Positions 10,967 through 62,223 of a stretch of 64,000 nt of DNA are shown one piece after another. The notes under the pieces are model-generated. The model made no database searches and was not told the origin of the DNA. It worked only from the letters and a program-made list of their open reading frames with translations. Source of the stretch: an uncultured Bacteriovoracaceae bacterium. Lineage in GTDB: Bacteria > Bdellovibrionota > Bacteriovoracia > Bacteriovoracales > Bacteriovoracaceae. The stretch is from NCBI GenBank assembly GCA_963747475.1, contig CAVVFE010000007.1:23963-87962 (forward strand), read 5' to 3'. Position numbers and translations under genes: made by a program. Positions within the stretch are counted from its first letter, which is position 1. Every line of letters begins with the position of its first letter.

Positions 10967-13636
10967 TTAACCTTTGGTGAAGGGGGACGCTTTATTTTTC
11001 TTGCCTCCCCTTTTGCCTCTTTTGCCCTTCCCCTTGGGAGGGCCTGCAGAGCTTTTACCACCGCTCTTTGCGCCGCCTTTGCCGCCTCGTCTAGGGCCGC
11101 CTCTTGCGCCGCCTTTCTTTTGATCGCCTTTGTCTCTTCTTGGCCCTCTAAAGCGCCTTGCTCCAAAGCAGGCCTCACAAATATTGAACTCAAAGCTGTC
11201 AGGGAGCTTCACCCCGCAGGAAGAGCAGCGACGAGAAACTTTCTCGGAGAGAAGCTGATTGAGTTTCTCAATGGCCTCAGTCTTATTGGCGAGAAGCTCA
11301 GCTTCAACGAACTCAAAGTTTTGATTATTAAAATGTCTGGCAAGCCATTGATAAAGCTCGACGCATTTTATGGCCCGCTCAAGATAGTCGATGTCATCGC
11401 TTTCGGGATCGATGTCCTCATTTGTGATCTGCCGACTCTGAACATAGTGATTGGCGATCCAAACAAAGTACTGGACATGCTCCAAAAGACCTAGATTTAC
11501 TGGAGCGCAGGCGAACCCAAAAACTTCGGCGTCGCTAAGCTTGCCCTGCTCATCAACGCCTTCGACCATTTCTGTCACTTCGATCATCTCTTTTAAGTCG
11601 ACGCAATAGAAAGGCTTCTCAAAAGTCATGGTGTTAAAGAGCCTTAAGAATTCTGATAGGTCCAAGCTAGCAAGCGTGTTCTCTTCAAGGGCCTTATTAA
11701 CAGACCTAAAAATATCAAGGTCAGGCCCCACCATAGCGAGCTCTTTCTGTTCAAGCTTTGCGCTTAAGGCGCTTCTTACAAGATCAAGTCCTTCGTCCAC
11801 TTTTTTAAGTGTCGTGACTTTCCCCTCTGGGAAGCGGCCATAACGTCCGGCCCGACCGGCGATTTGTTTTATTTCAGATTCTGTTATGAAGTGCTCTTTG
11901 GAATTATAAAACTTCGAAAGGGTCGAGAACACAATCCTTTTAATAGGAAGGTTCATGCCCATGGCGATGGCGTCAGTGGAGACCATAATATCTGTCTCGC
12001 CGCTATCAAATTTTCTCGCTTGCTCTCTTCTCACTTCAGGGCTCAAGCGGCCGTAGACGATCGAGACCTTGAAGCCAAGCTTTTCCAAGTCCATTTTATA
12101 TTTAAGAGCGTTTCGCCTTGAGAAAACAATAAGCGCGTCGTGCTTTTCAAGCTCAGTGAGCTTGAGCTGCTTTTTCATAACGTCAAGCTTTGTCATACGC
12201 TCGTATTTCTTTATTTCAAGCTCATCGCCTGTGAGCTTCAGTATTTTTTCCACGAGCTCTAAAACGGAGTGGTCTCCGCAAAGGTGAATTTCGTCACTAT
12301 TGATATTAACGAGAGCTCTCGTCCACGCCCAGCCCCTTTGAGGATCAGTGATCATTTGAATTTCATCAATCACCACACAATCAAAGTCCTCATTCATCCG
12401 GGCCATCTCTATGGTTGATGAGTAATGAGTGGCGTCTGGCTGCTCTATAACCTCCTCACCAGTGAGAAGATTTGTGACGACGCCCTTGTCGTTTAAGGTG
12501 TCGTAGAGCTCTGAAGCCAGAAGCCTAAGCGGCGCCAAATAACAGCCATGCTTGGCCTTTGCTAGGGCCTCAATGGCGTTATATGTCTTGCCTGAGTTGG
12601 TGGGGCCCATATGATAAATGATTTTTCGTGTTTTCTTTCTCGCCTCAGTATGCGCCCAAAACTGCCCCAGATACTCGCGTAAGATGGTAGCAGAGATGTC
12701 CTTTCGCTTATAGGCCATAATGGACTTAACAAGCTTTAAAAACTCTCTTTTAAGAAGGTTTGGCCCTTTCCACATGCCAAGACCTAATTGAGTGAAAAAC
12801 CTCTCAAATTCCTCGTCAGTCACAAGCCCTGGAGAGATGTCTTCCTCGTCCAAAACAGAGTTGAAGAAGGTGATCAAACGCTCTTTGTAAGAGCGTCCAA
12901 CGTCGGTGTGAAAACCTAGTTTTGATTTAAGCTCCGCCTTAATGTCCGAATCAAGCTTATTAAGCGAGCCTCTTTTAAGCTTATAGCGAACTCTCTGCAG
13001 GTTCTTCTCAATGCGTTTTTTGAGCTTGTTATAATAATCGCTCACATAACTAATCTTCTGAGTGAGAACGAGATCCTGCAGCTCTTCCTCTGCCTCGGCG
13101 ATAAGCTCGCACTGCTGTTTGAAGACCTCGTCCCGCAGCTTGGCCCTAAAGTCCGCAAGACATTTCTGACAAGGACAACCAAGCTGATTGGCCTTTAGCT
13201 CCGTTGAAAAGTTCTCTTTGATAGTCTCTTGAGAGCTAAGATGCTTGTCTCTAACTTCAACGTCCCACTCTTTAAAAGATATAATATAGTTTTGAAGCAG
13301 TTCACTCTCGACTTTCTCGCCGGGAACCAATGGAAAGCTTTCTCTCTCCGGCAGGAGAAAGTCGTCCAAAAAGATAGTTTCGACCAAAGTCTCCCTATCG
13401 CTTAGCTGTCGAGAATCGCCATATTCTTTTTCAAATAGACGCTCTAGGCTTGGGTAGTTTTCAAATAAAGAAAAGGCGCTTTCAGCAATTTGCTTGAGCG
13501 CCTCTAGAATTAATTTTGCTTGATCAAGAGATCGAAGATCCTCGTCATTTTCCCGCCCTTCATAGGCCAGAATGGCCTGTCGTGAGCCGGAGAGGTTTTC
13601 TTCGATCTCGGAGAATATTTTAAGTTTTTTGTCCAA
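10967..13636 (-). CDS. SUV3-like superfamily-2 RNA helicase with long N-terminal extension, C-terminal zinc ribbon and Arg/Gly/Lys-rich tail
   Basis: Intact 889-aa ORF. Helicase motifs: GPTNSGKTY (Walker A), VIDEIQM, IVFSRR, YGRLSPEVRREQARKFD, VSTDAIAMGMNLPIKRIVF and QIAGRAGRYG. The tail reads CSSCGVKLPDSFEFNICEAC followed by ..RGGPRRGGKGGAKSGGK... Confidence 0.85.
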   Translation of the reverse strand: MDKKLKIFSEIEENLSGSRQAILAYEGRENDEDLRSLDQAKLILEALKQIAESAFSLFENYPSLERLFEKEYGDSRQLSDRETLVETIFLDDFLLPERESFPLVPGEKVESELLQNYIISFKEWDVEVRDKHLSSQETIKENFSTELKANQLGCPCQKCLADFRAKLRDEVFKQQCELIAEAEEELQDLVLTQKISYVSDYYNKLKKRIEKNLQRVRYKLKRGSLNKLDSDIKAELKSKLGFHTDVGRSYKERLITFFNSVLDEEDISPGLVTDEEFERFFTQLGLGMWKGPNLLKREFLKLVKSIMAYKRKDISATILREYLGQFWAHTEARKKTRKIIYHMGPTNSGKTYNAIEALAKAKHGCYLAPLRLLASELYDTLNDKGVVTNLLTGEEVIEQPDATHYSSTIEMARMNEDFDCVVIDEIQMITDPQRGWAWTRALVNINSDEIHLCGDHSVLELVEKILKLTGDELEIKKYERMTKLDVMKKQLKLTELEKHDALIVFSRRNALKYKMDLEKLGFKVSIVYGRLSPEVRREQARKFDSGETDIMVSTDAIAMGMNLPIKRIVFSTLSKFYNSKEHFITESEIKQIAGRAGRYGRFPEGKVTTLKKVDEGLDLVRSALSAKLEQKELAMVGPDLDIFRSVNKALEENTLASLDLSEFLRLFNTMTFEKPFYCVDLKEMIEVTEMVEGVDEQGKLSDAEVFGFACAPVNLGLLEHVQYFVWIANHYVQSRQITNEDIDPESDDIDYLERAIKCVELYQWLARHFNNQNFEFVEAELLANKTEAIEKLNQLLSEKVSRRCSSCGVKLPDSFEFNICEACFGARRFRGPRRDKGDQKKGGARGGPRRGGKGGAKSGGKSSAGPPKGKGKRGKRGGKKNKASPFTKG

Positions 13637-51338: not shown

Positions 51339-52617
51339 TTAGTTAAGAGGCCTTGCAATAAGCTTATTGCCGCTCATTTCACTGAGGTAAACGTCTGAAA
51401 TTGTGTTACTAAGGTCCTTATCGCTTTTCATCGCCACACGAATATAAGACGAGGTATAGCCCTCAAAAAGGCCGTCTTTCTCCCTCTCAAAAAGGACTTT
51501 GTTTTCGCCGCCGATGAAGGCCTTTGCGAATTGCGCCTTCTTCTCTTCTCCAAGGTGAATAAGAGTTTTAACTCGGTCCTTTTTAACCCCCGCCTGAATT
51601 TGCTCTTCCATTTTCGCAGCAGTGGTGTTCTTTCTTTTTGAATAAGGGAACACATGAAAGTGAGTTATTGGAAGCTCTTTTAAGAGCTTGTATGTCTGCA
51701 TGAACTGATCTTCAGTCTCGCCTGGATAGCCGACGATGACGTCCGCCCCAATTGAGCAATTAGGAAAGTATTCCTGAACCATAGCAATGACGTCCCGATA
51801 AAAGGCGACGTCATACTTTCTTCGCATGGACTTTAAGATGTCATCGCATCCGCTTTGAAGAGGAATATGGAAATGGTCCTGGTATTTGCCGCTAGTTTTT
51901 AAGACCTCTAAGAAGCTCTCGCGTGATGGTGTTAGGCTCCACTGAAGACATCCGAAGCCTCTCAAGTCCTTCGACTTCCACCACCCCTTTCACGAGGTCC
52001 TCAAGTCTCTCGCCTGAGGTGGACTCATATTCGCCGATATTAACGCCGGTGAGAACAATTTCCTTAAAGCCTTCGGAGACCAATTTCTTCGCTTCTTCCA
52101 CCGCCTTATCGACAGTGATTGTTCGCGAGCGCCCTCTAGCAAAAGGGATGATGCAATAAGAGCAAACATAATTGCAGCCGTCTTGGATCTTTAAAAAGGC
52201 CCGGGTATGGGAGTCGGCCTTGGTGGTGGTGGCCCCCCAGAACTCAGTGGTGTTATCAATTTTGACTTGGGTCTCTTCCTCTTCTTGTAGGTAATCAAAG
52301 ACTTTATATTTTTCATTGGTGCCTAAAATAAGATCAACACCTTTCATTTTCTTAATCTTTTCAGCCTCCATTTGCGCATAGCAGCCGGCGACCACGACCT
52401 TGCCTTCAGGACTATGTTTTTGGGCCTTTCGTATAAGATTTCTGCAACTGGAGTCTGCCCCATCGGTCACCGTGCAGGTATTAAGAAAAGTGACATCACT
52501 TTCTTCTCCAAAGGGAACGACCTTATAGCCTTTCTCGACAAAAGTTTGAGCGATCTGGCCTGTCTCAGACATATTAAGACGGCAACCTAATGTGTGAAAT
52601 GAAACCTTTTTTTCCAT
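51339..52617 (-). CDS. mtaB: Radical-SAM methylthiotransferase, MtaB/MiaB-like (frame break near 51900-51960)
   Basis: The UPF0004 N-domain reads VSFHTLGCRLNMSETGQIA...NTCTVT. The radical-SAM motif CNYVCSYCIIP and a TRAM-like C-terminus are also present. Confidence 0.8.
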
Positions 52618-52803: not shown

Positions 52804-52880
52804 GGTCTCGTAGCTCAGTTGGTTAGAGCATCTCCCTTTTAAGGAGAGGGTCCTGTGTTCGAGTCACAGCGAGATCACCA
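52804..52880 (+). tRNA. tRNA-Lys (anticodon UUU)
   Basis: Hand-folded cloverleaf: acceptor GGTCTCG/CGAGATC, D stem GCTC/GAGC, anticodon stem TCTCC/GGAGA with loop CTTTTAA, T arm CTGTG-TTCGAGT-CACAG, and an encoded CCA. Confidence 0.9.
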
Positions 52881-52908
52881 TCTTAAAACGTAAAGACGAT
52901 CAGTAAAT

Positions 52909-52986
52909 GCTCCCATCGTCTAGCCCGGTCTAGGACATCGCCTTTTCACGGCGGTAACAGGGGTTCGAATCCCCTTGGGAGTGCCA
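52909..52986 (+). tRNA. tRNA-Glu (anticodon UUC)
   Basis: Hand-folded cloverleaf: acceptor GCTCCCA/TGGGAGT, anticodon loop TTTTCAC, T arm AGGGG-TTCGAAT-CCCCT, and an encoded CCA. Confidence 0.9.
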
Positions 52987-53027: not shown

Positions 53028-53104
53028 GTTCTCCAAAAGTGAAGTAACTAGTCATCTTCTTTTGACACCTTTTCTTAGGCCCGTCCCATTGCTTGCCCCT
53101 CTCT

Positions 53105-54119
53105 TCAAGCTCCTGCATTTCTCTTAGGTCTTCCTTTGGACTCGTCCACAGGCTCTTGATCTTCGTCTTTGGGAGCGAACTCCAAGGAAAAGAGAAGTGG
53201 GAAATGATCTGAGCCAGTATCAGGAAGCCTCGTTAAGTCGGAGTAATAAAAGGAATCAGAGTGAAAGAAGTGATCCAGAGGCGCTCTCATAACAGGGTTC
53301 CAAGTGGGGAAACTATTATAAAGGCCTCGCCCGACTCTAGGGTCAAGAAGCTCGCCTGTCCTTTTAAAAAGCCTAGTTGTGTGCGACCACGCGACATCAT
53401 TGAAGTCGCCCACAACAAGAACATGCGGCAGCTTTCTAGCAAGCTCGGCAATTTTCATGAGCTCAGAGTCACTCTCAATAGAGTCCCCCTCTTTCGGCCT
53501 TGGCGGCCTGGGGTGCACTCCAAAAAGAACGAATTCTTGACCTTTTCTAAACTCCATCAAGGCGTGAATCGATGGGACTCTTTCGTCCACAAGAAATTTC
53601 ACTTCATGCTCCTTTATTTTAAGCTTTGAATACAAGAGCATTCCATAAGTATTGTCTTGAGGAGCAAGAACCTGGTAGGGATATTTATCTTTGAGGCCTC
53701 TTAGGTTTTGTTCCCAAGCTTTTCCAGTTTCCACTAAAAAGATTATGTCTGGATCATGCTTTTTAAAAAGCTTCATGGTCTTTTCATATTCCGTGTTCTT
53801 TGCCCGAACATTAAAGGTGAGAACCTTCACAGCGCGGCGCCCCCGCTCTGTAGGCAGAGACTCCTTCTCATGAAAGATGGTATAGGGGAATATTCGATAT
53901 AAGTCGAGGCCCAGAGTCAGTGACGAGGCCCAAAACCAGGACAGTTTGGACGACGCCATTTCTATAAAAAGCCACCTCTAGCGCAAGACAAAGAAGGGCG
54001 AGGACGAATAATTGCAGACGGGGAAAATCCAGCGCCCTCACGGGCCATAGCCCTGTGTTCCACAAGGGAAGAAGACTTCCCGCAATGAGCAAAATAGAAA
54101 AGACATGGAGAACCTTCAC
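53105..54119 (-). CDS. Endonuclease/exonuclease/phosphatase (EEP) family protein with N-terminal membrane anchor (frame break near 53870-53960)
   Basis: Motifs VLTFNVRAKN, DIIFLVET, GDFNDVAWSH and GSDHFPL are present. The N-terminal TM helices lie in ORF 53868-54119. Confidence 0.7.
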
Positions 54120-54806
54120 CTAATCAAGCTCCTCGATAAAGCTCTTTGCCTTTTTGTTGGAGACTTCAATCTCTCTCATCAGGTCTTTCATGTCTTTCTC
54201 TATGCTTTGGAACTCGCTTTTGAAATTTCCAATCATCTTCGCGTTTAAGTTGTGCTTGAGATAAATGACTCTGTCCTTAAACTTCGCCAGCACGCCTTCT
54301 AGTTGAGTCTCCACTTTCCTCATATTTTTAAGAGTTTCTGAAAAGCGAACTTTTGTTGTCGAAAGCTTGGCCTTGCTCTGTGATTTGTACTTTTTGTTTT
54401 TGAGCTCGTTTGCCTCGTTTTTCCACTCTAGAAATAAATCGCTTGCGATGTCCTCAATTTTGTCAATCCGCTCACTCAGGTCCTCTTTTTGTTCGACCGA
54501 GTCTTCATAATCGTCCTTAAGACCGTCATAGGTCTCTTCAAGTCTCCCCTCTTCAAAGCTGTATTCATGCCTTATCTTTGCAAGTGTGCTTTCAAACTTC
54601 TCCTTCACATCAGTTTGTTCTTCCTGAGCGGCCTGCATATTGCTCTGGAGAAGGTCTCGCTTTTCCTTGCCCATAGTCTCCCAAAAACTATAGTAAGCAG
54701 TAGAGCAGGACACAGTGAGTAAGAGAAGAAAATGGCCAAACTTCAAAAGGCCTCCATCGTTGTTTGAATCGCTTAAATTATAACTTCCCGCCGCGCTTTT
54801 ACGCAA
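54120..54806 (-). CDS. Coiled-coil lipoprotein, DUF2959-like
   Basis: Intact ORF with a lipobox-like LLLLTVSC. The helical E/K-rich body (..KRDLLQSNMQAAQEEQ..FLEWKNE..) resembles DUF2959 proteins from memory. Confidence 0.45.
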   Translation of the reverse strand: MRKSAAGSYNLSDSNNDGGLLKFGHFLLLLTVSCSTAYYSFWETMGKEKRDLLQSNMQAAQEEQTDVKEKFESTLAKIRHEYSFEEGRLEETYDGLKDDYEDSVEQKEDLSERIDKIEDIASDLFLEWKNEANELKNKKYKSQSKAKLSTTKVRFSETLKNMRKVETQLEGVLAKFKDRVIYLKHNLNAKMIGNFKSEFQSIEKDMKDLMREIEVSNKKAKSFIEELD

Positions 54807-54877: not shown

Positions 54878-55800
54878 TTAGTTTAGCATGTCCACCCGAG
54901 GAGAGAGGAAATGATGCGACCTATCGATAGAGGTCAGATACTTCTTATAGCTTTTGGAGACAAGATTCTCCACTTCTTCCAAAGTTATGTCTGATTTATT
55001 AATCACCACTAGGCGATGCTGAAATGACCTATGACTCACCGGACTTGTCTCTATTCCTATGAATATAGATCTGGCCTTTTCAGGGCCAACACCAGGCGCT
55101 ATAAGCAGCTCTTTTCTTATAAACTTCTCAGCTCCTTCTGCGACCTCAATCGAGTGAAGACAATTCGCTTCTCTTAACGAGTTCACCTGTGGCCTTATAA
55201 GTGGGCTTCACAGAGGTCACTCTTAGCCTACTGGCCTCGGGATGCGCGGTGACCCTTTTAAAATAATTGTCGAATCCGCTTTCTCTATATTCTTTCCATT
55301 TGGCCTTGTATTCTTTAATGGACTTTCTAACGGACGCAAGCTCCTCATGAAGGGCCCTCCGTTCTTGATCAGTGACTTTTCTCTTTTTTTCAGAAATTCC
55401 AAAGCGTCGTCAAAAACAAAAAGAGCGTCATCCCCTGAGGTGTGAGAAGCGTACTGGGCGAGGGAGAACTCAAGATCAGGCCCAAAGCCGCGCTCCACAT
55501 GCTCATAAAAAGAATTGAGCTTCTTGTCCGCCTTCCAGAACGCCTCCCTAGAGGCCTTTATCACCTCCTCGATTTGTCCAAGTGATTGACGGCCTTCATA
55601 GTCTCCATGAGTCCCTCGGCGCCCATCTGCCCAATGTCCACCGAGTAGACTATTCCTGTGGTGGCGTTAGGGCTAAGGCTCACAGTTCCAGGGACGAGAA
55701 CAGAGGCGGTGATTTTATCGATGTCCCCAATATAGTCGTATATAAGATTCGCCTCATTGGCCGTTTACACGAGGAAAGACCTGTTTGACCTCATCCAAAA
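54878..55800 (-). CDS. Hypothetical protein (reconstructed across several frame breaks)
   Basis: The pieces are ..NEANLIYDYIGDIDKITASVLVPGTVSLSPNATTGIVYSVDIGQMGAEGLMET.., ORF 55223-55564 and ORF 54878-55186. No family recognised, and the boundaries are uncertain. Confidence 0.3.
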
Positions 55801-55812
55801 ATCCTTGTCCTG

Positions 55813-56558
55813 TTAGAGCTCTTCCTGAGCGAGGTTGATCATGTCCAGACTCAAAGTGACCTGCCCGTCAGGCCATGTTTTAAAGATTCCCTCTGCCGGA
55901 CATCCGCTCCTGAATCAGCCTTCCATCTTGAAGACTTCTGACCAATCAGCTTTTGGCATTCTTCAGCAAATTCTGAAAAACTTCTTAGTTTCTCCGGGGG
56001 AGGTCCTTGAGAGCTTGGTGACTAAAGAGGCCTTGTCCGGCGTGGCTCCAAAGCCTCCTATCATCCAATGCTCAAGATCTTTCAGCATGAGGCGGAGGAG
56101 CGACCCCTTTTTCCGCCAACGCGCTTTCAAGCTTCGCGGCAAATTTCGCATTGGCCCTTTCAAAAGCGCCCTCGAGAGAGCGCCTCTCCTCAAAATTTGA
56201 AAGTCCCAAATTGAGAGATTTATAGTCGTGATATTTAAGCTTGATCTTAGCGTAGATTTGAGGCTCCGTCTCTCTTAGCTCCTTTAAAAACATTTCTTGA
56301 AAAGAGATGGAAAGGCTATAGGACTCGCCTTTGTCCTTAAGAATGCTATCGTTAAGCTCTTTCATCAGTCGATTTTCCACGCGGAAAAAAGTTATTCCTT
56401 CCAACTCGCCTTCTTTTACAGCATTATGAATTTGCTATTTTCTTTAAAGACAGAGCCTTGAAAACCATAGAACTCTTTTCTCCTAAGCAAGCGAGTGTCG
56501 ATGACAGAAGAAATATTAGAGAAGGCCTCAGAACAGAAGTCCTGGGCATGAGACGCAT
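55813..56558 (-). CDS. Hypothetical lipoprotein (frameshifted)
   Basis: The ATG at 56558 begins MRLMPRTSVLRPSLIFLLSSTLAC (lipobox). The protein continues in ORF 56072-56404 and in shifted frames down to the TAA at 55813-55815. Confidence 0.4.
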
Positions 56559-56594
56559 GCCTCCCACGAGGAAGGCGGCGATAAGAAGAAATAA

Positions 56595-56632
56595 AAATGC
56601 GCTCTTCGATAAGTCACATTTGACTTATCGGA
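56595..56632 (-). terminator. Hairpin (possible terminator or processing site) after the rimK-like gene
   Basis: A perfect 10-bp inverted repeat CGATAAGTCA/TGACTTATCG lies at 56607-56630. On the minus strand a T-rich stretch begins only about 8 nt after the stem. Confidence 0.35.
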
Positions 56633-56647
56633 TTATTAAGAAAATTC

Positions 56648-58174
56648 TTATGCTCCTGAGCGTTTCAGTCTGGTTTTATCGATAAACCATTCGACAAGCC
56701 GATCATAGAGCTCGTCTCCAAACTCTTTGTCCTCAATGCCGGCGTCTATATTGGGATTGTCATTGATTTCCACAACATAAATATTTCCTTCGCTGTCCTC
56801 TTTGAGGTCCACTCCATAAAGCCCGTCCCTAATTTGGGAGGCGGCCTGGGTGGCGATTTTCAGAACTTTTTCGGGAGCGTTTTCGACTGGCAAAAGTCTC
56901 AAAGTCTCCGCTAAAGGCGTCGCTCTTCGAGTCCTTTATCATGATTATAGATCTGCCAATGGCCGGTACTCATATAGTACTTGCAAACGAAGAATGGCGC
57001 TCTTGCCAAGCACTCCAACTCTCCAATCGAAGGGCGTAAATAAAAATTTTTGGACCAAGACAAGGTCGCTCTTTTTTCAGGAACTCGGAGATAATCTCTT
57101 TTGCCTCTTCTTTTGTTTTCGCTTTTTTCACGCCTACACTAAAAGACCCGTCTGGGACTTTAATGACAAGGGGAAGCCCAAACTTCGCCTCCAGATCATC
57201 AATGGTCTTTTTCTTAGCATCGTGAACAAAAGTCCCCTGGAATGGAAGCGATCTTCGCTCGCTCTAGAAGGTTAGAAATGTATATTTTATTGGTGCATTT
57301 CAAGGATGCGTCTCAGGGTCGTCCATGACGGCGATGCCTTCACTTTCGGCCTTCTGAGCAAATCGATAAGTGGAGTTTCTTATAGAAGTCGTTTTCCTAA
57401 TAAAAAGAGCGTCAAATTCACTAAGCCTGCCAATGTCCTTTCCAGTGATAAATTCGCACCACACGCCCTTTTTCTCGCAAGCGCTTTTAAAGCGTTCAAG
57501 CGCCTTCTCATCGCTTGGGCGCCTGCGCCTCCTCCGGGTCAACAAGCACGGCAAGCTCCATCTTGTAAGTTTTTCTGGCCTTGGGAAGCCGCCAAATCTT
57601 GGAGCTATAGGAGTCCAAGCTCTTCGCAAAGAAGTCTTCCTCTTTCTTCAGCCAGAGCGGCAATTGAAACGGGCGCCACTCTATGAATTTTCAGTCTTCC
57701 GTTTTTATGTCCCAACAGTGACTTGCAATAAAGGACATGGGTAGTATTCAAAAATTTTGCGTCCAATAGCCTCAAACTTTTTCTCTCTGGGTCTTGGAGA
57801 AGAAGATGGTAAAAGAAGCCTCTTCGCCAGCGTTTATTTGCAGAGTCTTTCCGAAGGCCTCCATGTCCCTCATGAAAGTCGGCCAAATCATGAAGGTAAA
57901 CCTGCTTTTTGCCCAAGTCATTTAAGGTCTTCAAAGAGGGCAAGACGCGGTGGCCTCTCGCTTCAGCAAGCATGCTACAGTAATATCCGCGCTTTAAGTA
58001 TCCCGTTTTAGAACAAAGGTTTATCAATCGAAGGCCCTTATTTTCCTGGAAAGAGGGATCAAAAAGATAGCTCTGAACGGAGACGACTTGATCAGTCGGG
58101 AAATAAGGTCTCCAGTCGTCCAACTCATCAACAACAATTATAAAATTTGTGTCCACAGGGGCCCGCTTTTCCAT
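56648..58174 (-). CDS. RimK-type ATP-grasp ligase with N-terminal RLAN-like domain (frameshifted)
   Basis: ORF 57605-58174 resembles the RimK-like ATP-grasp N-terminal (RLAN) domain. ORF 57300-57629 is the pre-ATP-grasp region (..GVWCEFITGKDIGRLSEFDALFIRKTTS..). ORF 56648-56902 is the ATP-grasp C-terminus (..YGVDLKEDSEGNIYVVEINDNPNIDAGIED..). Confidence 0.7.
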
Positions 58175-58230
58175 TATAGTTAACTCACTCCCTCATACCT
58201 TCAGAGGAATGAGATTAGTAAATATGAGAA

Positions 58231-59332
58231 TTGCTAAAAATGGAAGATATAAAATATCGCCCCGCTTGCCTTGACGACCTCCCCCTTTTAGTCGAACTGG
58301 AAAACGCGTGTTTTGAATATGACCGGCTCACCGACGCAAATTTTCGTCATATGATTAAAAAGGCCAACGCGGACGTTATCGTTCAGGTTTTTGATGGCGT
58401 CATTGCTGGCTATGGCGTGCTTCTTTACAGGAAGGGGACCTCTCTCTGTCGATTATATTCCCTAGCGGTCTCACCTAAACTTAGAGGCAAAGGCCTGGGC
58501 GCCAAGCTTCTTAGACGCTTAGAAAAGACCGCTCACGACCGAGGCATGAGCTATCTGCGCCTTGAAGTCAAAAAAGACAACCGGCCAGCGATCACGCTTT
58601 ACGAGAGCAAGGGCTATGTCCAATTTATGGTCAAGCCTGATTACTATGACGATCATAGCGACGCCTTGTGCTTGGAAAAGCCTGTGCAAAAAAACACAGA
58701 GGGCCTTAAAATTAAGGTCCCTTTCTATAGGCAGACCACCGACTTTACTTGCGGCCCCTCTGCTCTTCTTATGGCGATGAAAAGCCTTGAGCCATCGAGA
58801 AAAAACGAGCGCATCGAAGAAATCCAAATTTGGCGAGAGGCCACTACTATATTTATGACGTCAGGACACGGAGGGTGCGGTCCTCATGGGCTGGCGCTTG
58901 GCGCCTTTAAGAGGGGCTTTAGCCCGAGCTCCATTTCAACACGACAAGATTCTTTTTATCGAGGGCGTCGGCAAAAAGAAAAAAAAGAAATTATAAAGCT
59001 CGCTCAAGACGGCTTTGAAAAAGAGATCAAGGCCAATCACATTCAAATGAGCCATGATCTCAGCTGGAGATCACTTGAGGAGATTATTAAGCGCGGCGGC
59101 GTGCCCCTTGTTCTTATTAGCTCTTATCGCCTCACTAATAGCAAGGTCCCCCACTGGGTGGTGGTGTCAGGAATCTCCGAAGACTTTGTTTTCTTTAATG
59201 ATCCCTATATTGAAGAAGGCGATACAGTGGTCTCCAACTCCGACATCCCCATTCGACAAAGACGAATTTGAGAGGATGGCCCAGTATGGAGGAAAGCAGG
59301 TCAAGTCCATTCTTGCCCTCTTTAAAGACTGA
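58231..59332 (+). CDS. GNAT N-acetyltransferase fused to a papain-fold (C39-like) cysteine peptidase domain (frame breaks near 58930-58990 and 59250)
   Basis: The GNAT core reads ..LYSLAVSPKLRGKGLGAKLLRRLE..RLEVKKDNRPAITLYESKGY... The peptidase motifs are FYRQTTDFTCGPSALL (Cys at about 58750) and KVPHWVVVSG (His at about 59152). The shifted C-terminus ..FDKDEFERMAQYGGKQV.. ends at 59332. Confidence 0.7.
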
Positions 59333-59368
59333 TTTGGTGAAATTTGCGCATTATACTATAATAGAGAT

Positions 59369-60589
59369 ATGAAAATTAAAGATTCAGGTTTTTCTTTGGT
59401 AAGTGTTCTTATGGCCACTGCTCTTATGGGCGGTCTTGCAGTTATGTTTATGCAGATGATGAAAAACATGAATCAAGGACAGGGCTATGTAGAGGCGGCC
59501 GCCGAAGAAGTTGCCCTGAGAAATGAAATCGACATGATCCTTGGTAATCCAAAGTTTTGCAGAGTTAGCCTAGCAGGGCCAGGACCCGCGGGCTCACCAA
59601 CAAGCCCTGAAACTTTTTTCAAGCGAGACATTACCGATCTTGAAAATGACCCAGGCAAAGAGGTTGAGCTATGGTTAGCTGATACCACAGGAGAAGAAAG
59701 AACAAACAAAAAGTTTGATGCTTTAGATCCAGCTAAGAACAAATATGGCAAACTCAAATTAAAAGAGATCAAATTATATATGACCAATGGGGACGATCAA
59801 AACTACCCCGACGCCAGCTATCATGATGACATGGGAGAGCTCCTTGTTAAGTATGAAAAGCCAATAGGAAGCAATAAAACAAGAGAGATGGTCGCCAAGT
59901 TTCCGCTCACAGTCGGCATGAGCACCACCTCAGGAGAGACCACAATAGTATCTTGCTCCAAATCTGCTGGAGGGAACTCAGCGTCGCTAACTGGGTACTC
60001 TTCGAACTGTAGGATTCGCTTGTCCCACAGGGACAATACTGATCCATGGAGACACTCGCCCTATTTAGACATGTCAAAGCCTGGTTTTGTTGGCATTAGA
60101 CAAGATGGACGCATGAATAGTGATGACAGACTTAGAGTTCGGATGTCCAACTGTGGATTTACTGAAATTGATAACTACCTTAAAAATTGTCGCTTTGGTC
60201 TTGGTAGACGGGACACAATGCACAGCTCAACTCCTAATCCCACACCCGACACTTCATCAGAAGGATTATTGAATATAGGTGTAACTTATCACGTTCCAAT
60301 CGGAACTGTAGAGTACGACGACCATTTCTACTTTAGATTAAGATGCCCCGCCGGGCCCAATCCTGAACTTCATGACTATATGAAAAAAAATTGCATGGTA
60401 TGCATGGGTCAGTCAGATCTCCATAGGCCAAGTCCAGACACCTCTGCCTGCTCACAGATACAGGACTCGACGGGCACAAAATGGGACAGGTTTGGGATCG
60501 ACGGCGAAACTGACGGAGATGACTTATTTTTCTTTGGCTTTTTCTGTGGTTATTACGCCCCCATTGTCCAAGGCATTAAAGTGAACTAA
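59369..60589 (+). CDS. Large type IV pilin/pseudopilin-like protein with atypical N-terminus and three Cys-bounded C-terminal modules
   Basis: Intact 406-aa ORF. MKIKDSG|FSLVSVLMATALMGGLAVMFM resembles a prepilin leader plus hydrophobic helix, but position +5 is Ser rather than Glu. Confidence 0.6.
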   Translation: MKIKDSGFSLVSVLMATALMGGLAVMFMQMMKNMNQGQGYVEAAAEEVALRNEIDMILGNPKFCRVSLAGPGPAGSPTSPETFFKRDITDLENDPGKEVELWLADTTGEERTNKKFDALDPAKNKYGKLKLKEIKLYMTNGDDQNYPDASYHDDMGELLVKYEKPIGSNKTREMVAKFPLTVGMSTTSGETTIVSCSKSAGGNSASLTGYSSNCRIRLSHRDNTDPWRHSPYLDMSKPGFVGIRQDGRMNSDDRLRVRMSNCGFTEIDNYLKNCRFGLGRRDTMHSSTPNPTPDTSSEGLLNIGVTYHVPIGTVEYDDHFYFRLRCPAGPNPELHDYMKKNCMVCMGQSDLHRPSPDTSACSQIQDSTGTKWDRFGIDGETDGDDLFFFGFFCGYYAPIVQGIKVN

Positions 60590-60599
60590 GACTTTTGCT

Positions 60600-61592
60600 T
60601 TAGTCCACCTGCTCCCATTCCCCTTTGCTACTAAGCTTATACTTTTTTGAAATCTGCGCAGCGCCCTTTGCTCCTCGAGCAGACAGGGCAATAAGAGGTT
60701 TATTGTTTTCCCAATCAATCTCCACCGCCCCAAACGTCCTCCCAAAATGAATATTTGGATAATAAAAACTAGCAAACCACTGCAGGTACCAAGGCGCTGT
60801 GTGGGTAAGTCCGCTATTGATAAATTCCAGATGACCAAAGTTCTTATATATGGAAGTGAAATGCTTATCACCTGAAAGAAAAACAACCCCCTAAGGACCT
60901 AGTAACTTTCAAGAAGCTTTAAAAGGCGCTTATGGGCTTTGGATAATCAGTCCATCCCAATGCCTTGGGCACATCATCTGACATGACAGAGATTCCGCTC
61001 ACAATAAAGTGAATCTTTGCCTCACTGCTTTTCAGCTCGTTTCAAGCCATTCCCATTGCTCTGTTCCCTAAAATGTCATTGTTCTTCTCTGGCCTGTGCA
61101 AGTGAAACCGGGTGTCGAGAAAATATTTTTGCCTGTTTCTTCCCTCGCCAAAAGAGTAAGACGCATATATGCCGTTTCTTTGTCTTCTTTTGAATTTTAG
61201 GCTCTTCAAGAAAATCAAGCAAGTGCTTTTGCGACTCGGTCTTTATCGGATTAAAGAAGTCAGCGTCATTTTCCCCATAATCATGGTCGTCCCAAGTCCC
61301 AATAATGGCGGTCTTCTTTTTAATTGTTCATAGTTAGAGTTTGTTTAATTCGCTCATAAGCTTTTTCGAGAACCGCGCCCTTTTTCGCGTCAGCATAGAC
61401 ATTGTCCCCTCCCCAAATAAAGACTTGAGGCGCAAGAGAATTGATTTCGCTCCAAAGTGCGGTTCCCCGGCGCATGATCATTACATGAACCGAAAGCAAA
61501 GCTTTTAAGCTCTTTAATATCGTTTAGCTTTTCCTGATTAGAAGTTCGCAAAGACAAGCTAGGGGAATAGGAAAATAAAAGAGCATCTTCAT
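60600..61592 (-). CDS. PhoD-like metallophosphatase (heavily frameshifted)
   Basis: Recognisable pieces are signal-like MKMLFYFPIPLACL, FAFGSCNDH, ..VFIWGGDNVYAD.., GTWDDHDYGENDA and ..FFSGDKHFTSIY..GLTHTAPW... The gene ends at the TAA at 60600-60602, and its ATG overlaps the scramblase stop (TAATG). Confidence 0.55.
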
Positions 61593-62223
61593 TAGTCAAA
61601 AAGTCCCAAAACACTCCCAGAGTTCTCCTCAAAGAAGTCAAGGTCTATGCTTAAAGTTGCGAGCAAGATGACGGCCTGTTCTTCTTCTTTCCATTCCCTT
61701 TTGGAGAGATCTGTCGCAAAGCTATCGCTATCGCTGAAAACTTCTTTCAGAACGCCGCCCCACTTTTTTGCTATCTGGCCCGCGTCCTCTCCTCTTCGTC
61801 TTGATTTGAAATGTCCAAAGCTTCCAACGAGGCGACTCTATTTTGGCGAAGACTGAGCCTCTGGAATCTAGCAGATCGTATTTGCGCTTTAAGACGCCAA
61901 AGCGAGTTTTAATTTCTCCAATAAGTTGATCGTTTTTAAAGACCCTCATTTCTGAAAAAAAGAAGAAGAACGGTCTGCGAGCAGTAAGAACAAGCTCTTT
62001 TTGGGAGTTCCAAATATCAATGTCCATTGGCCTGCGCGCTTTGAAAAAATTCTTCGTGAGAGCGCCGAGGGCCCCCTTCTCTTTCGGCCGCGTATCCCAA
62101 GGGCCGTCCCTCTTCATCAAGGATCGAGTATTTATTCGCCGTCTCCCATCCGGTGAAGATTTCTAGCTTTTCCCTAATCTGTCTAATTTTTACGAATTTT
62201 GCGTCCCCTATTAAAGATTTCAT
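61592..62223 (-). CDS. Phospholipid scramblase (PLSCR/LURP-one fold) family protein (frameshifted)
   Basis: Family-like stretches are ..KFVKIRQIREKLEIFTGWETANKYSILDEEGRPLGYAAE.., ..RRPFFFFFSEMRVFKNDQLIGEI..RKYDLLDSRGSVFAKIESP.. and the shifted tail ..IAKKWGGVLKEVFSDSDSF..LSIDLDFFEE... Confidence 0.55.

Follow-up and report, generated by a model that had tools for sequence, protein, structure and literature searches.

What do an RLAN-RimK ATP-grasp ligase and a GNAT-peptidase fusion encoded back to back do together, and do the genes around them take part? The question is raised by a 64,000-nucleotide stretch of DNA from an uncultured Bacteriovoracaceae bacterium (contig CAVVFE010000007.1, positions 23,963 to 87,962), here called the window, in which the ligase gene on the minus strand and the fusion gene on the plus strand diverge from a short intergenic region. 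A reading made from the sequence alone (the sequence-only reading) had assigned both genes to two divergent operons with an envelope or pilin substrate. The analysis reported here leads to a different answer. The ligase and the GNAT are near-obligatory partners across Gammaproteobacteria and Bdellovibrionota. The explanation favoured here, with somewhat better than even confidence, is a self-contained cytoplasmic two-gene module that makes a small N-acetylated peptide, the flanking genes being incidental to it. A small peptide as the product of the module, taken by itself, is given an even chance. The core features are listed below.

56648 to 58156, minus strand: RLAN-RimK ATP-grasp amide ligase, about 498 aa once frame-corrected
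57620 to 58075, minus strand: RLAN domain (PF14401), approximately residues 34 to 183 of the ligase
58157 to 58239: intergenic region between the ligase and GNAT-peptidase genes, about 83 bp
58240 to 59332, plus strand: GNAT (RimI-like N-alpha-acetyltransferase) fused to a DUF3335 papain-like cysteine peptidase, 363 aa, frame-corrected
58240 to 58690 (approximate), plus strand: GNAT domain of the fusion
58717 to 59332 (approximate), plus strand: peptidase domain of the fusion

Protein cluster searches returned more than 7,800 matches for the ligase family and more than 5,300 for the partner family. Gene neighbourhoods were surveyed in 80 GTDB species loci with 10-kb flanks, hosted by Pseudomonas, Xanthomonadales, Vibrio, Shewanella, Methylococcales, Halobacteriovorax, Bacteriovorax and others; loci L001 and L002 brought the set to 82, and the closer relatives L083 to L087 were added to it. 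The nearest named relatives belong to Halobacteriovoraceae and Bacteriovoracaceae. In tblastn searches, the GNAT partner adjoined the ligase in 81 of the 82 loci, and the sole exception (L037) ends at a contig edge. The pair was also present in all five of the closer relatives, which gives a total of 86 of 86 informative loci. Thus, the partnership that the sequence-only reading had suggested is real and strongly non-random.

The surroundings of the pair behaved differently. When the flank proteins were used as tblastn queries against the 82 loci, the genes for a secreted protein of about 555 aa (unk555), a DUF2959 protein, an endonuclease/exonuclease/phosphatase (EEP) protein, PhoD and OpuAC were found beside the pair in L001 only. 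A pilin-like protein was found beside it in L002 only, L012 giving a weak partial match (E = 1.7e-6, about 100 aa, about 3 kb from the ligase). The five closer relatives, at 55 to 66% identity, retain the pair and have different flanks (P-type ATPase, scramblase, MGS, LysR, PurK-like and others). De novo clustering of open reading frames (ORFs) of at least 80 aa within 7 kb yielded no third conserved gene, the remainder being genus-level synteny. Among ORFs of 18 to 79 aa within 700 bp of the pair none was conserved beyond Pseudomonas, and the locus survey found no conserved ABC exporter or amidotransferase near the pair. Out of the neighbourhood described earlier, the adjacency of ligase and GNAT is therefore kept and no other neighbour is conserved. 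To judge from these comparisons, the flanking unk555, DUF2959, EEP, pilin-like and PhoD genes are lineage-specific synteny and lie outside the module.

The composition of the partner was not constant. The papain-like domain was present in 51 of the 80 GTDB loci; in the other 29 (Xanthomonadales and some Pseudomonas, for example L008, L016, L056 and L058) the partner consists of a GNAT alone, about 160 aa long. Since these 29 partners do without the domain, the GNAT and not the peptidase is the obligatory partner of the ligase. In nine gammaproteobacterial loci, mostly of methanotrophs (L005, L006, L037, L043, L047, L059, L068, L075 and L078), a DUF2817 gene (E = 3.8e-102, M14-like metallopeptidase superfamily) intervenes between the ligase and GNAT genes, and its product may serve the module as a further or substitute hydrolase. 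With 29 of 80 loci lacking the peptidase and nine carrying DUF2817 as an addition, the hydrolase is an exchangeable accessory, as would be expected for product turnover. Pseudomonas shows a synteny of its own at the genus level: in 12 loci, L009:11529-12479 and L061:11487-12425 among them, the ligase gene is followed after about 20 nt by one for a CorA-like transporter (Pfam CorA, 1.1e-33).

The identity of the ligase was established on a frame-corrected sequence, as the gene does not have an uninterrupted frame as sequenced. In Pfam scans, the raw minus-strand ORF ending at 58174 matched RLAN with E = 1.4e-24, and the downstream fragment ending at 56648 corresponded to the C-terminal part of a RimK-type ATP-grasp domain. 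After correction, the RLAN match rose to E = 2.6e-42 (144 bits against a cut-off of 25) and covered positions 2 to 149, or 148 of the 150 profile positions; the RimK model PF08443 scored 36 bits (cut-off 21) and the Dala_Dala_lig_C model PF07478 scored 52 bits. Frameshift-aware alignment with the intact 498-aa orthologue of L001 (P0001) gave 83.9% identity over 498 aa with zero stops. The corrected protein keeps every one of the 58 columns found invariant among 62 aligned sequences, including the ATP-grasp Lys336 and the Glu465/Asn467 pair of the Mg-binding motif. The source lineage is absent from the GTDB species set searched, where the best match was at 48% identity. The frame correction and profile searches proposed with the sequence-only reading therefore bear out the RLAN, RimK, GNAT and DUF3335 domains; what they do not bear out is the ligase as an intact ORF. 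The divergence of a minus-strand RLAN-RimK ligase from a plus-strand GNAT-C39-like fusion is likewise supported for every domain by Pfam.

Comparison with solved structures placed the ligase close to RimK without making it a canonical RimK. The ligase matched RimK 7QYR in the PDB at 8.4e-11, and the 62-sequence profile matched Pseudomonas and E. coli RimK, LysX and Ddl. These matches were restricted to profile positions 239 to 475, the ATP-grasp part, and RLAN had no solved relative among the PDB sequence matches. An AlphaFold2 model of the ligase had a mean predicted local distance difference test (pLDDT) score of 86.8; its top Foldseek matches were ArgX, RimK and LysX, with target-normalised TM-scores of 0.76 to 0.82, and also Ddl. 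The canonical RimK models were missed by a wide distance: TIGR00768 scored 63.3 bits against a cut-off of 143.4, and NF007764, the equivalog model of the ribosomal protein S6-glutamate ligase, 32.3 against 331. By these profile scores, the ligase belongs to the RimK superfamily and is not a canonical RimK. Since the scores fall so far below the canonical cut-offs, it is not simply an S6 ligase.

The partner was also read in its corrected frame. The raw plus-strand ORF from 58231 (346 aa) contains an Acetyltransf_1 domain (1.6e-16) followed by DUF3335 (PF11814, 2.8e-64). A single frameshift lies near 59257, and the true end of the gene is at 59332; the corrected protein starts at the ATG at 58240 (MEDIKYRP) and is 74.6% identical to its L001 orthologue. 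DUF3335 is described by Pfam as a 'Peptidase_C39 like family'. The match to Peptidase_C39_2 was marginal (1.3e-5, 26 bits against a cut-off of 24), and the bacteriocin-processing C39 family PF03412 had no match in the Pfam scan of the fusion. The best NCBIfam match of the GNAT was rimI, at 73.8 bits below the cut-off of 86.4, and its PDB profile matches were led by the N-alpha-acetyltransferases RimI, archaeal Ard1 and Naa10. The AlphaFold2 model of the fusion (pLDDT 88.3) gave RimI-type proteins as top Foldseek matches with target-normalised TM-scores of 0.88 to 0.89, the matches listed being all GNAT. The acetyl-CoA binding motif R-G-K-G-L-G fits the family consensus RGxGLG. The residues of the peptidase domain are given below, their codons having been checked in the window sequence.

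58732-58734, plus strand: catalytic Gln165
58750-58752, plus strand: catalytic Cys171
59152-59154, plus strand: catalytic His305
59200-59202, plus strand: catalytic Asp321
58876-58878, plus strand: Cys213, a second invariant Cys, in GHGGCGP

Gln165, Cys171 (in TCGPS), Cys213 and His305 (in HW) are the same in all of 50 homologues, and Asp321 in at least 90% of them. The catalytic Cys (TCGPSAL) and His (HWVVV) pointed out earlier are thus indeed C171 and H305. Given the conservation of the Gln, Cys, His and Asp residues, the peptidase domain looks catalytically competent.

The region between the two genes is longer than the 56 bp (58175-58230) first assigned to it; with the starts corrected to 58156 and 58240 it is about 83 bp. 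Alternative starts of the ligase are as follows.

58174, minus strand: ATG of the longest possible ligase ORF
58156, minus strand: GTG, the homology-supported ligase start

The ligase start was placed at the GTG because a Shine-Dalgarno sequence followed by GTG-GA is conserved in seven relatives in the intergenic alignment. In the window, the Shine-Dalgarno-like AAAGCGGG precedes this GTG, and the conserved block CTCATATTTACT abuts the GNAT-peptidase start. Alignment of the seven related intergenic regions also revealed a conserved ACTATAAT / TATAGT box, which can be read back to back as a -10-like hexamer on both strands. A consensus scan returned one putative promoter that uses this box, TCCACA-17-TATAGT on the plus strand; this is a consensus match alone, and is suggestive only of a promoter in the divergent region. 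Most ligase-GNAT pairs are divergent, with gaps of 54 to 83 bp in the close relatives.

In the two-gene module favoured here, the ligase would use ATP to add one or more amino acids to the carboxylate of a small acceptor, by Glu-type chemistry such as that of RimK, LysX and RIMKLA. The GNAT would cap the alpha-amino group from acetyl-CoA. The fused peptidase would hydrolyse or trim the product, so that the module would combine synthesis with turnover. What it makes would be a di- or oligopeptide metabolite in N-acetylated form, by a logic like that of N-acetylglutaminylglutamine amide (NAGGN; Ngg plus a peptidase) or N-acetylaspartylglutamate (NAAG; NAT8L plus RIMKLA plus glutamate carboxypeptidase II, GCPII).

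Several points weigh against this proposal. The literature searched yielded no experimental paper, substrate or product for any member of the family. The RLAN domain has no solved or characterised relative. A small-molecule acceptor is what we infer, and the relatives of the enzymes are just as compatible with a protein target: RimK, LysX and ArgX, structurally nearest to the ligase, act on protein C-termini, and the nearest relatives of the GNAT acetylate protein N-termini. Finally, co-transcription of the ligase with unk555 is possible in the window and in L001, though it is not a property of the family.

The alternative that survives best is one in which the substrate is a protein. Here, an amino-acid tail would be added reversibly to the C-terminus or a side-chain carboxylate of a protein encoded elsewhere; RLAN would recognise the target, the GNAT would acetylate its N-terminus, and the papain-like domain or DUF2817 would erase the tail, in parallel with RimK/RimB on S6 and TTLL/CCP on tubulin. 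This explanation is unlikely, yet it deserves serious attention, as the closest solved ligase relatives act on protein C-termini and the closest GNAT relatives are protein N-alpha-acetyltransferases. An extra N-terminal domain is a common route to target specificity, and the M14-like DUF2817 belongs to the same clan as the deglutamylating carboxypeptidases; both were counted in its favour. Against it, none of 87 loci has a candidate substrate gene linked to the pair, the ligase lies far below the canonical RimK cut-offs (63 against 143 and 32 against 331 bits), and RimK-family members also make small molecules, as do RIMKLA/B, MptN and CofF. A sharper form of the idea, that the pair is the writer and eraser of an undescribed bacterial mark, with RLAN directed at a specific unlinked protein that would be tailed at its C-terminus or on an acidic side chain, and that the partner would acetylate and strip of the tail, is less likely again. 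The corresponding picture of a bacterial counterpart of tubulin glutamylation and deglutamylation would, as an analogy, be just as doubtful.

Whether the two-gene module is functional in this organism depends on how the frameshifts are read. Frameshift-aware dynamic programming against the L001 proteins located 11 frameshifts and no in-frame stops in the ligase.

Near 57868, 57789, 57716, 57646, 57519, 57307, 57231, 57077, 57001, 56937 and 56888, minus strand: frameshifts in the ligase gene

The same comparison gave 11 frameshifts in unk555 (plus two in the signal-peptide region), seven and one stop in PhoD, three in EEP, one in GNAT-peptidase, and none in DUF2959, OpuAC, the ABC gene and the 406-aa ORF that encodes the pilin-like protein. 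All of the heavily frameshifted genes are on the minus strand. Overlapping pairs of frame-broken ORFs occur throughout the 64-kb window.

These frameshifts are, by sequence comparison, very probably assembly errors, and the ligase gene is probably functional in the organism. They were judged to be errors because stops are lacking, because conservation of the corrected ligase exceeds that of its intact neighbours, and because insertions dominate. The opposing explanation, in which the ligase, unk555 and PhoD are genuinely decayed and the module is non-functional in this organism, is improbable, although the distribution of the events lends it some weight. Ligase, unk555 and PhoD have about 7 per kb, where GNAT-peptidase, pilin-like, OpuAC and DUF2959 have 0 to 1 per kb; 29 frameshifts fall in the first three genes and four in the other 5.6 kb or so compared. 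This unevenness (chi-square p = 2.6e-4) is not obviously predicted by a pure sequencing-error model and speaks against an error origin, as does the lack of homopolymer enrichment, 70% of the frameshifts lying near a run of at least 3 against 62% for random positions. The public proteins from the window are moreover fragments, namely a GNAT-peptidase cut short at 343 aa (P0121) and 97 aa of unk555 (P0245), and an intact ligase was not recovered. Decay is opposed by the absence of in-frame stops in both ligase and unk555, with one stop in 9.8 kb overall, and by the corrected ligase being 84% identical to its orthologue, above the intact neighbours at 75 to 79%. Bacterial pseudogene decay is deletion-biased. 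Here, 25 of the 33 events are +1 insertions, a signature of sequencing error, and frame breaks are spread over the whole window. Homopolymer errors of the 454, Ion Torrent or nanopore kind were rejected for want of enrichment, and random-insertion errors were preferred.

A third explanation takes the locus for a cassette of the microviridin or graspetide type, in which a ribosomally synthesised and post-translationally modified peptide (RiPP) is produced through C39-like leader removal, N-acetylation by the GNAT, and cross-linking or extension of the precursor by the ATP-grasp enzyme. Microviridin clusters do combine ATP-grasp, GNAT and C39-type peptidase genes, a point counted for this model. 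Among the genes that accompany graspetide ligases, those for C39-ABC transporters are the most frequent (PMC8939145), which was counted for it as well. The locus nevertheless fits poorly and a RiPP role is highly improbable. No conserved small ORF lies within 700 bp beyond Pseudomonas, where the DNA conservation is Pseudomonas-internal only, and an ABC transporter is not among the linked genes. The ligase, which carries RLAN, falls with RimK, LysX and Ddl, its profile matches include no graspetide-ligase family, and 29 of 80 loci manage without the peptidase domain.

The envelope model of the sequence-only reading is marginally weaker still and very hard to sustain. It holds that two divergent operons ligate, acylate or trim a peptide on the pilin-like protein or on lipoproteins at the envelope. 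The features that flank the pair are listed below.

53051 to 54119, minus strand: EEP membrane-anchored protein (Pfam Exo_endo_phos 7.6e-30), with three frameshifts
54120 to 54806, minus strand: DUF2959 protein (Pfam 1.3e-54), with a candidate N-terminal signal/lipobox LLLLTVSC
54878 to 56617, minus strand: unk555, secreted protein of about 555 aa, with 11 to 13 frameshifts and a probable GTG start at 56617
56606 to 56631, minus strand: hairpin of 9 to 10 bp (CGATAAGTC...GACTTATCG), directly past the ligase stop and overlapping the unk555 GTG
59369 to 60589, plus strand: 406-aa pilin-like protein with N-terminus KDSGFSLVSVLMA and a Cys-rich C-terminal half
60606 to 61581, minus strand: PhoD-like phosphatase, convergent with the pilin-like gene, 63% identical to the L001 PhoD, with seven frameshifts and one stop

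Tight spacing favours the model in the window: unk555 starts 30 nt past the ligase stop, as it does in L001, and the pilin-like gene begins 36 nt past the GNAT-peptidase stop codon. A homologue of the pilin-like gene also follows GNAT-peptidase in L002. Each adjacency, however, is shared with a single further genome, which is not the same for the two; the flanks of L083 to L087 differ, and the 80 GTDB loci lack these neighbours beside the pair, the weak L012 match being the sole trace. Such poor conservation largely refutes the model. Homologues of the flank proteins (P0242, P0243 and P0246) sit elsewhere in their genomes. The hairpin, moreover, separates the ligase from unk555. Folded in a 91-nt stretch, it gave -24.2 kcal/mol (z = -2.8), a similar sequence is present in L001 at about 11515-11545, and it may act as a weak terminator or by occluding translation. 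The core enzymes show no N-terminal hydrophobic segment and the solved relatives of both are cytosolic enzymes, whereas the proposed substrates are exported. Because the core enzymes look cytosolic and the neighbours membrane-bound or exported, a direct relation of enzyme and substrate would be topologically awkward. That the pseudopilin-like neighbour or the secreted 555-aa protein is modified before export is hardly credible. The Klebsiella protein CfmP (fimbria modification) was considered and set aside, as it is a TupA-like ATP-grasp enzyme and not an RLAN-RimK; it shows that ATP-grasp enzymes can affect pilins. A role in thiotemplated assembly independent of non-ribosomal peptide synthetases, as with closthioamide CtaD/CtaG and butirosin BtrJ/BtrH, where a carrier protein is loaded and the papain-like domain would serve as a transacylase, is extremely improbable: CtaG is assigned to PF11814 (DUF3335) and BtrH and cooperates with an ATP-grasp enzyme (PMC7183216), but here just two genes recur in thousands of genomes, and no conserved carrier protein, decarboxylase or phosphopantetheinyl transferase gene lies near the pair (ORFs below 80 aa screened within 700 bp). 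The absence of carrier, precursor and transporter genes near the pair makes transacylase and RiPP roles alike unlikely.

The flanking genes themselves were redescribed in part. What had been taken for two unknown genes downstream of the ligase is one frameshifted gene of about 555 aa, as the L001 homologue (67.5% identity) makes clear. Its product had been read as a lipobox lipoprotein; a Sec-type signal peptide is present at the N-terminus in both the window and L001, and the lipobox was rejected since no lipobox Cys is common to the two. The unk555 protein had no Pfam or NCBIfam match. Its family is rare, a 110-aa exact fragment used as query retrieving only 17 representative clusters at E ≤ 0.001, and P0246, the closest homologue outside L001, has no RimK pair nearby. 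The DUF2959 and membrane-anchored EEP assignments held good, the EEP protein having its N-terminal membrane segment in another frame and being 75.8% identical to a 356-aa protein of L001. In L001, a PA-domain M28 metallopeptidase gene (L001:13387-14886) lies between the 555-aa gene and DUF2959, at this single locus; its product recalls GCPII in architecture. The window has no M28 gene there, just 71 nt separating 54806 from 54878.

The 406-aa gene does start directly after GNAT-peptidase, as had been noted; the name 'pilin-like' rests on an N-terminal motif that lacks the Glu+5 of the prepilin pattern G-F-[ST]-L-x-E. The motif is K-x-x-G-F-S-L-V-hydrophobic, with G-F-S-L-V-S leading into a hydrophobic helix, and its Gly and Ser are invariant in five homologues. 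No Pfam or NCBIfam model matched the protein, Pfam not even at E ≤ 1. The family comprises four clusters among 5.8 billion proteins, and the three relatives share the N-terminal segment, likewise without Glu+5. NCBI calls one of the homologues 'type II secretion system protein', and P0242 and P0243 occur in unrelated contexts away from a RimK pair. The C-terminal half contains three Cys-containing repeats, NCRIRLSHRD, NCRFGLGRRD and NCMVCMGQSD. Farther out, a scramblase-family gene is split in two frames at 61728-62223 on the minus strand (Pfam Scramblase, 2.8e-10 and 1.9e-9), and this family also flanks GNAT-peptidase in L083 and L084. A putative MiaB-like radical-SAM gene, recognised by translation, occupies 51339-52617 on the minus strand and is split at about 51.9 kb. 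Between it and the EEP gene lie tRNA-Lys(UUU) and tRNA-Glu(UUC) at 52804-52986 on the plus strand.

The pair is widespread, with thousands of clusters in Pseudomonas, Xanthomonadales, Vibrio, Shewanella, methanotrophs and predatory Bacteriovoracia, and knowing what it makes would bring to bacterial physiology a new N-acetyl-peptide metabolite family or else a new way of modifying proteins. The window itself adds little to testability, its context being incidental and its organism uncultured or poorly assembled; the same pair occurs in hosts open to genetics, Pseudomonas for one. The survey contributes an obligatory GNAT, an exchangeable hydrolase and the absence of a linked precursor, carrier or transporter, and these narrow the plausible chemistries.

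How does the module compare with known systems? The window pair is an instance of a previously predicted system, and nothing essential differs. Iyer, Abhiman, Burroughs and Aravind (Mol Biosyst, 2009) reportedly described the neighbourhood of RLAN-RimK and GNAT/papain-like peptidase computationally. The Pfam families PF14401 (RLAN) and PF11814 (DUF3335) and the NCBI product names are taken by us to derive from that analysis. The names in use at NCBI are 'RimK family protein' and 'GNAT family N-acetyltransferase/peptidase C39 family protein'. DUF3335 has been noted as often fused to GNAT, with reference to Iyer et al. 2009 (PMC10318531). The predicted system and the window share domain architectures, adjacency and conserved catalytic residues; the window ligase is frameshifted in the assembly.

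Canonical RimK and the Pseudomonas RimABK system resemble the module in the ATP-grasp fold of the RimK, LysX and ArgX group with its conserved Mg/ATP-binding motif. In RimABK, the ligase is likewise paired with a dedicated protease, RimB (PMC11957791). Canonical RimK is about 300 aa, whereas the window ligase has some 200 additional N-terminal residues (RLAN), and the partners in RimABK are a retropepsin and an EAL protein in place of the GNAT-papain fusion. In the synthesis of NAGGN, the parallel that is best characterised, Ngg N-acetylates Gln and forms a peptide bond, and the Ngg operon includes a peptidase (PMC8070244). The system of Ngg, AsnO and the PA3461 peptidase is thus like the module in combining GNAT acetylation, an ATP-dependent peptide bond and a peptidase in one compact locus (PMC8070244). 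Unlike it, Ngg fuses the GNAT to the ligase and not to the peptidase; no AsnO is linked to the pair, and the peptidase here is papain-like and not M42. Against the Ngg model TIGR03103, the GNAT scored 32 bits (cut-off 569), through the GNAT motif only.

For mammalian NAAG and beta-citrylglutamate, the RimK-family enzymes RIMKLA and RIMKLB add Glu to an N-acetyl amino acid made by NAT8L, and GCPII degrades the product. RIMKLB is called a RimK homologue in PMC7907349. The mammalian genes differ in being unlinked and eukaryotic and in lacking RLAN, and the degrading enzyme is an M28 metallopeptidase. Closthioamide and butirosin assembly share with the module the cooperation of an ATP-grasp enzyme with a papain-fold enzyme of the PF11814/BtrH type (PMC7183216). 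The carrier proteins and tailoring enzymes needed there are not linked to the pair. In glutathionylspermidine synthetase/amidase, an ATP-grasp-type synthetase and a papain-like (CHAP) cysteine amidase act on the same bond, which offers a model for synthesis with turnover built in. That enzyme is a single bifunctional polypeptide of different families and has no GNAT.

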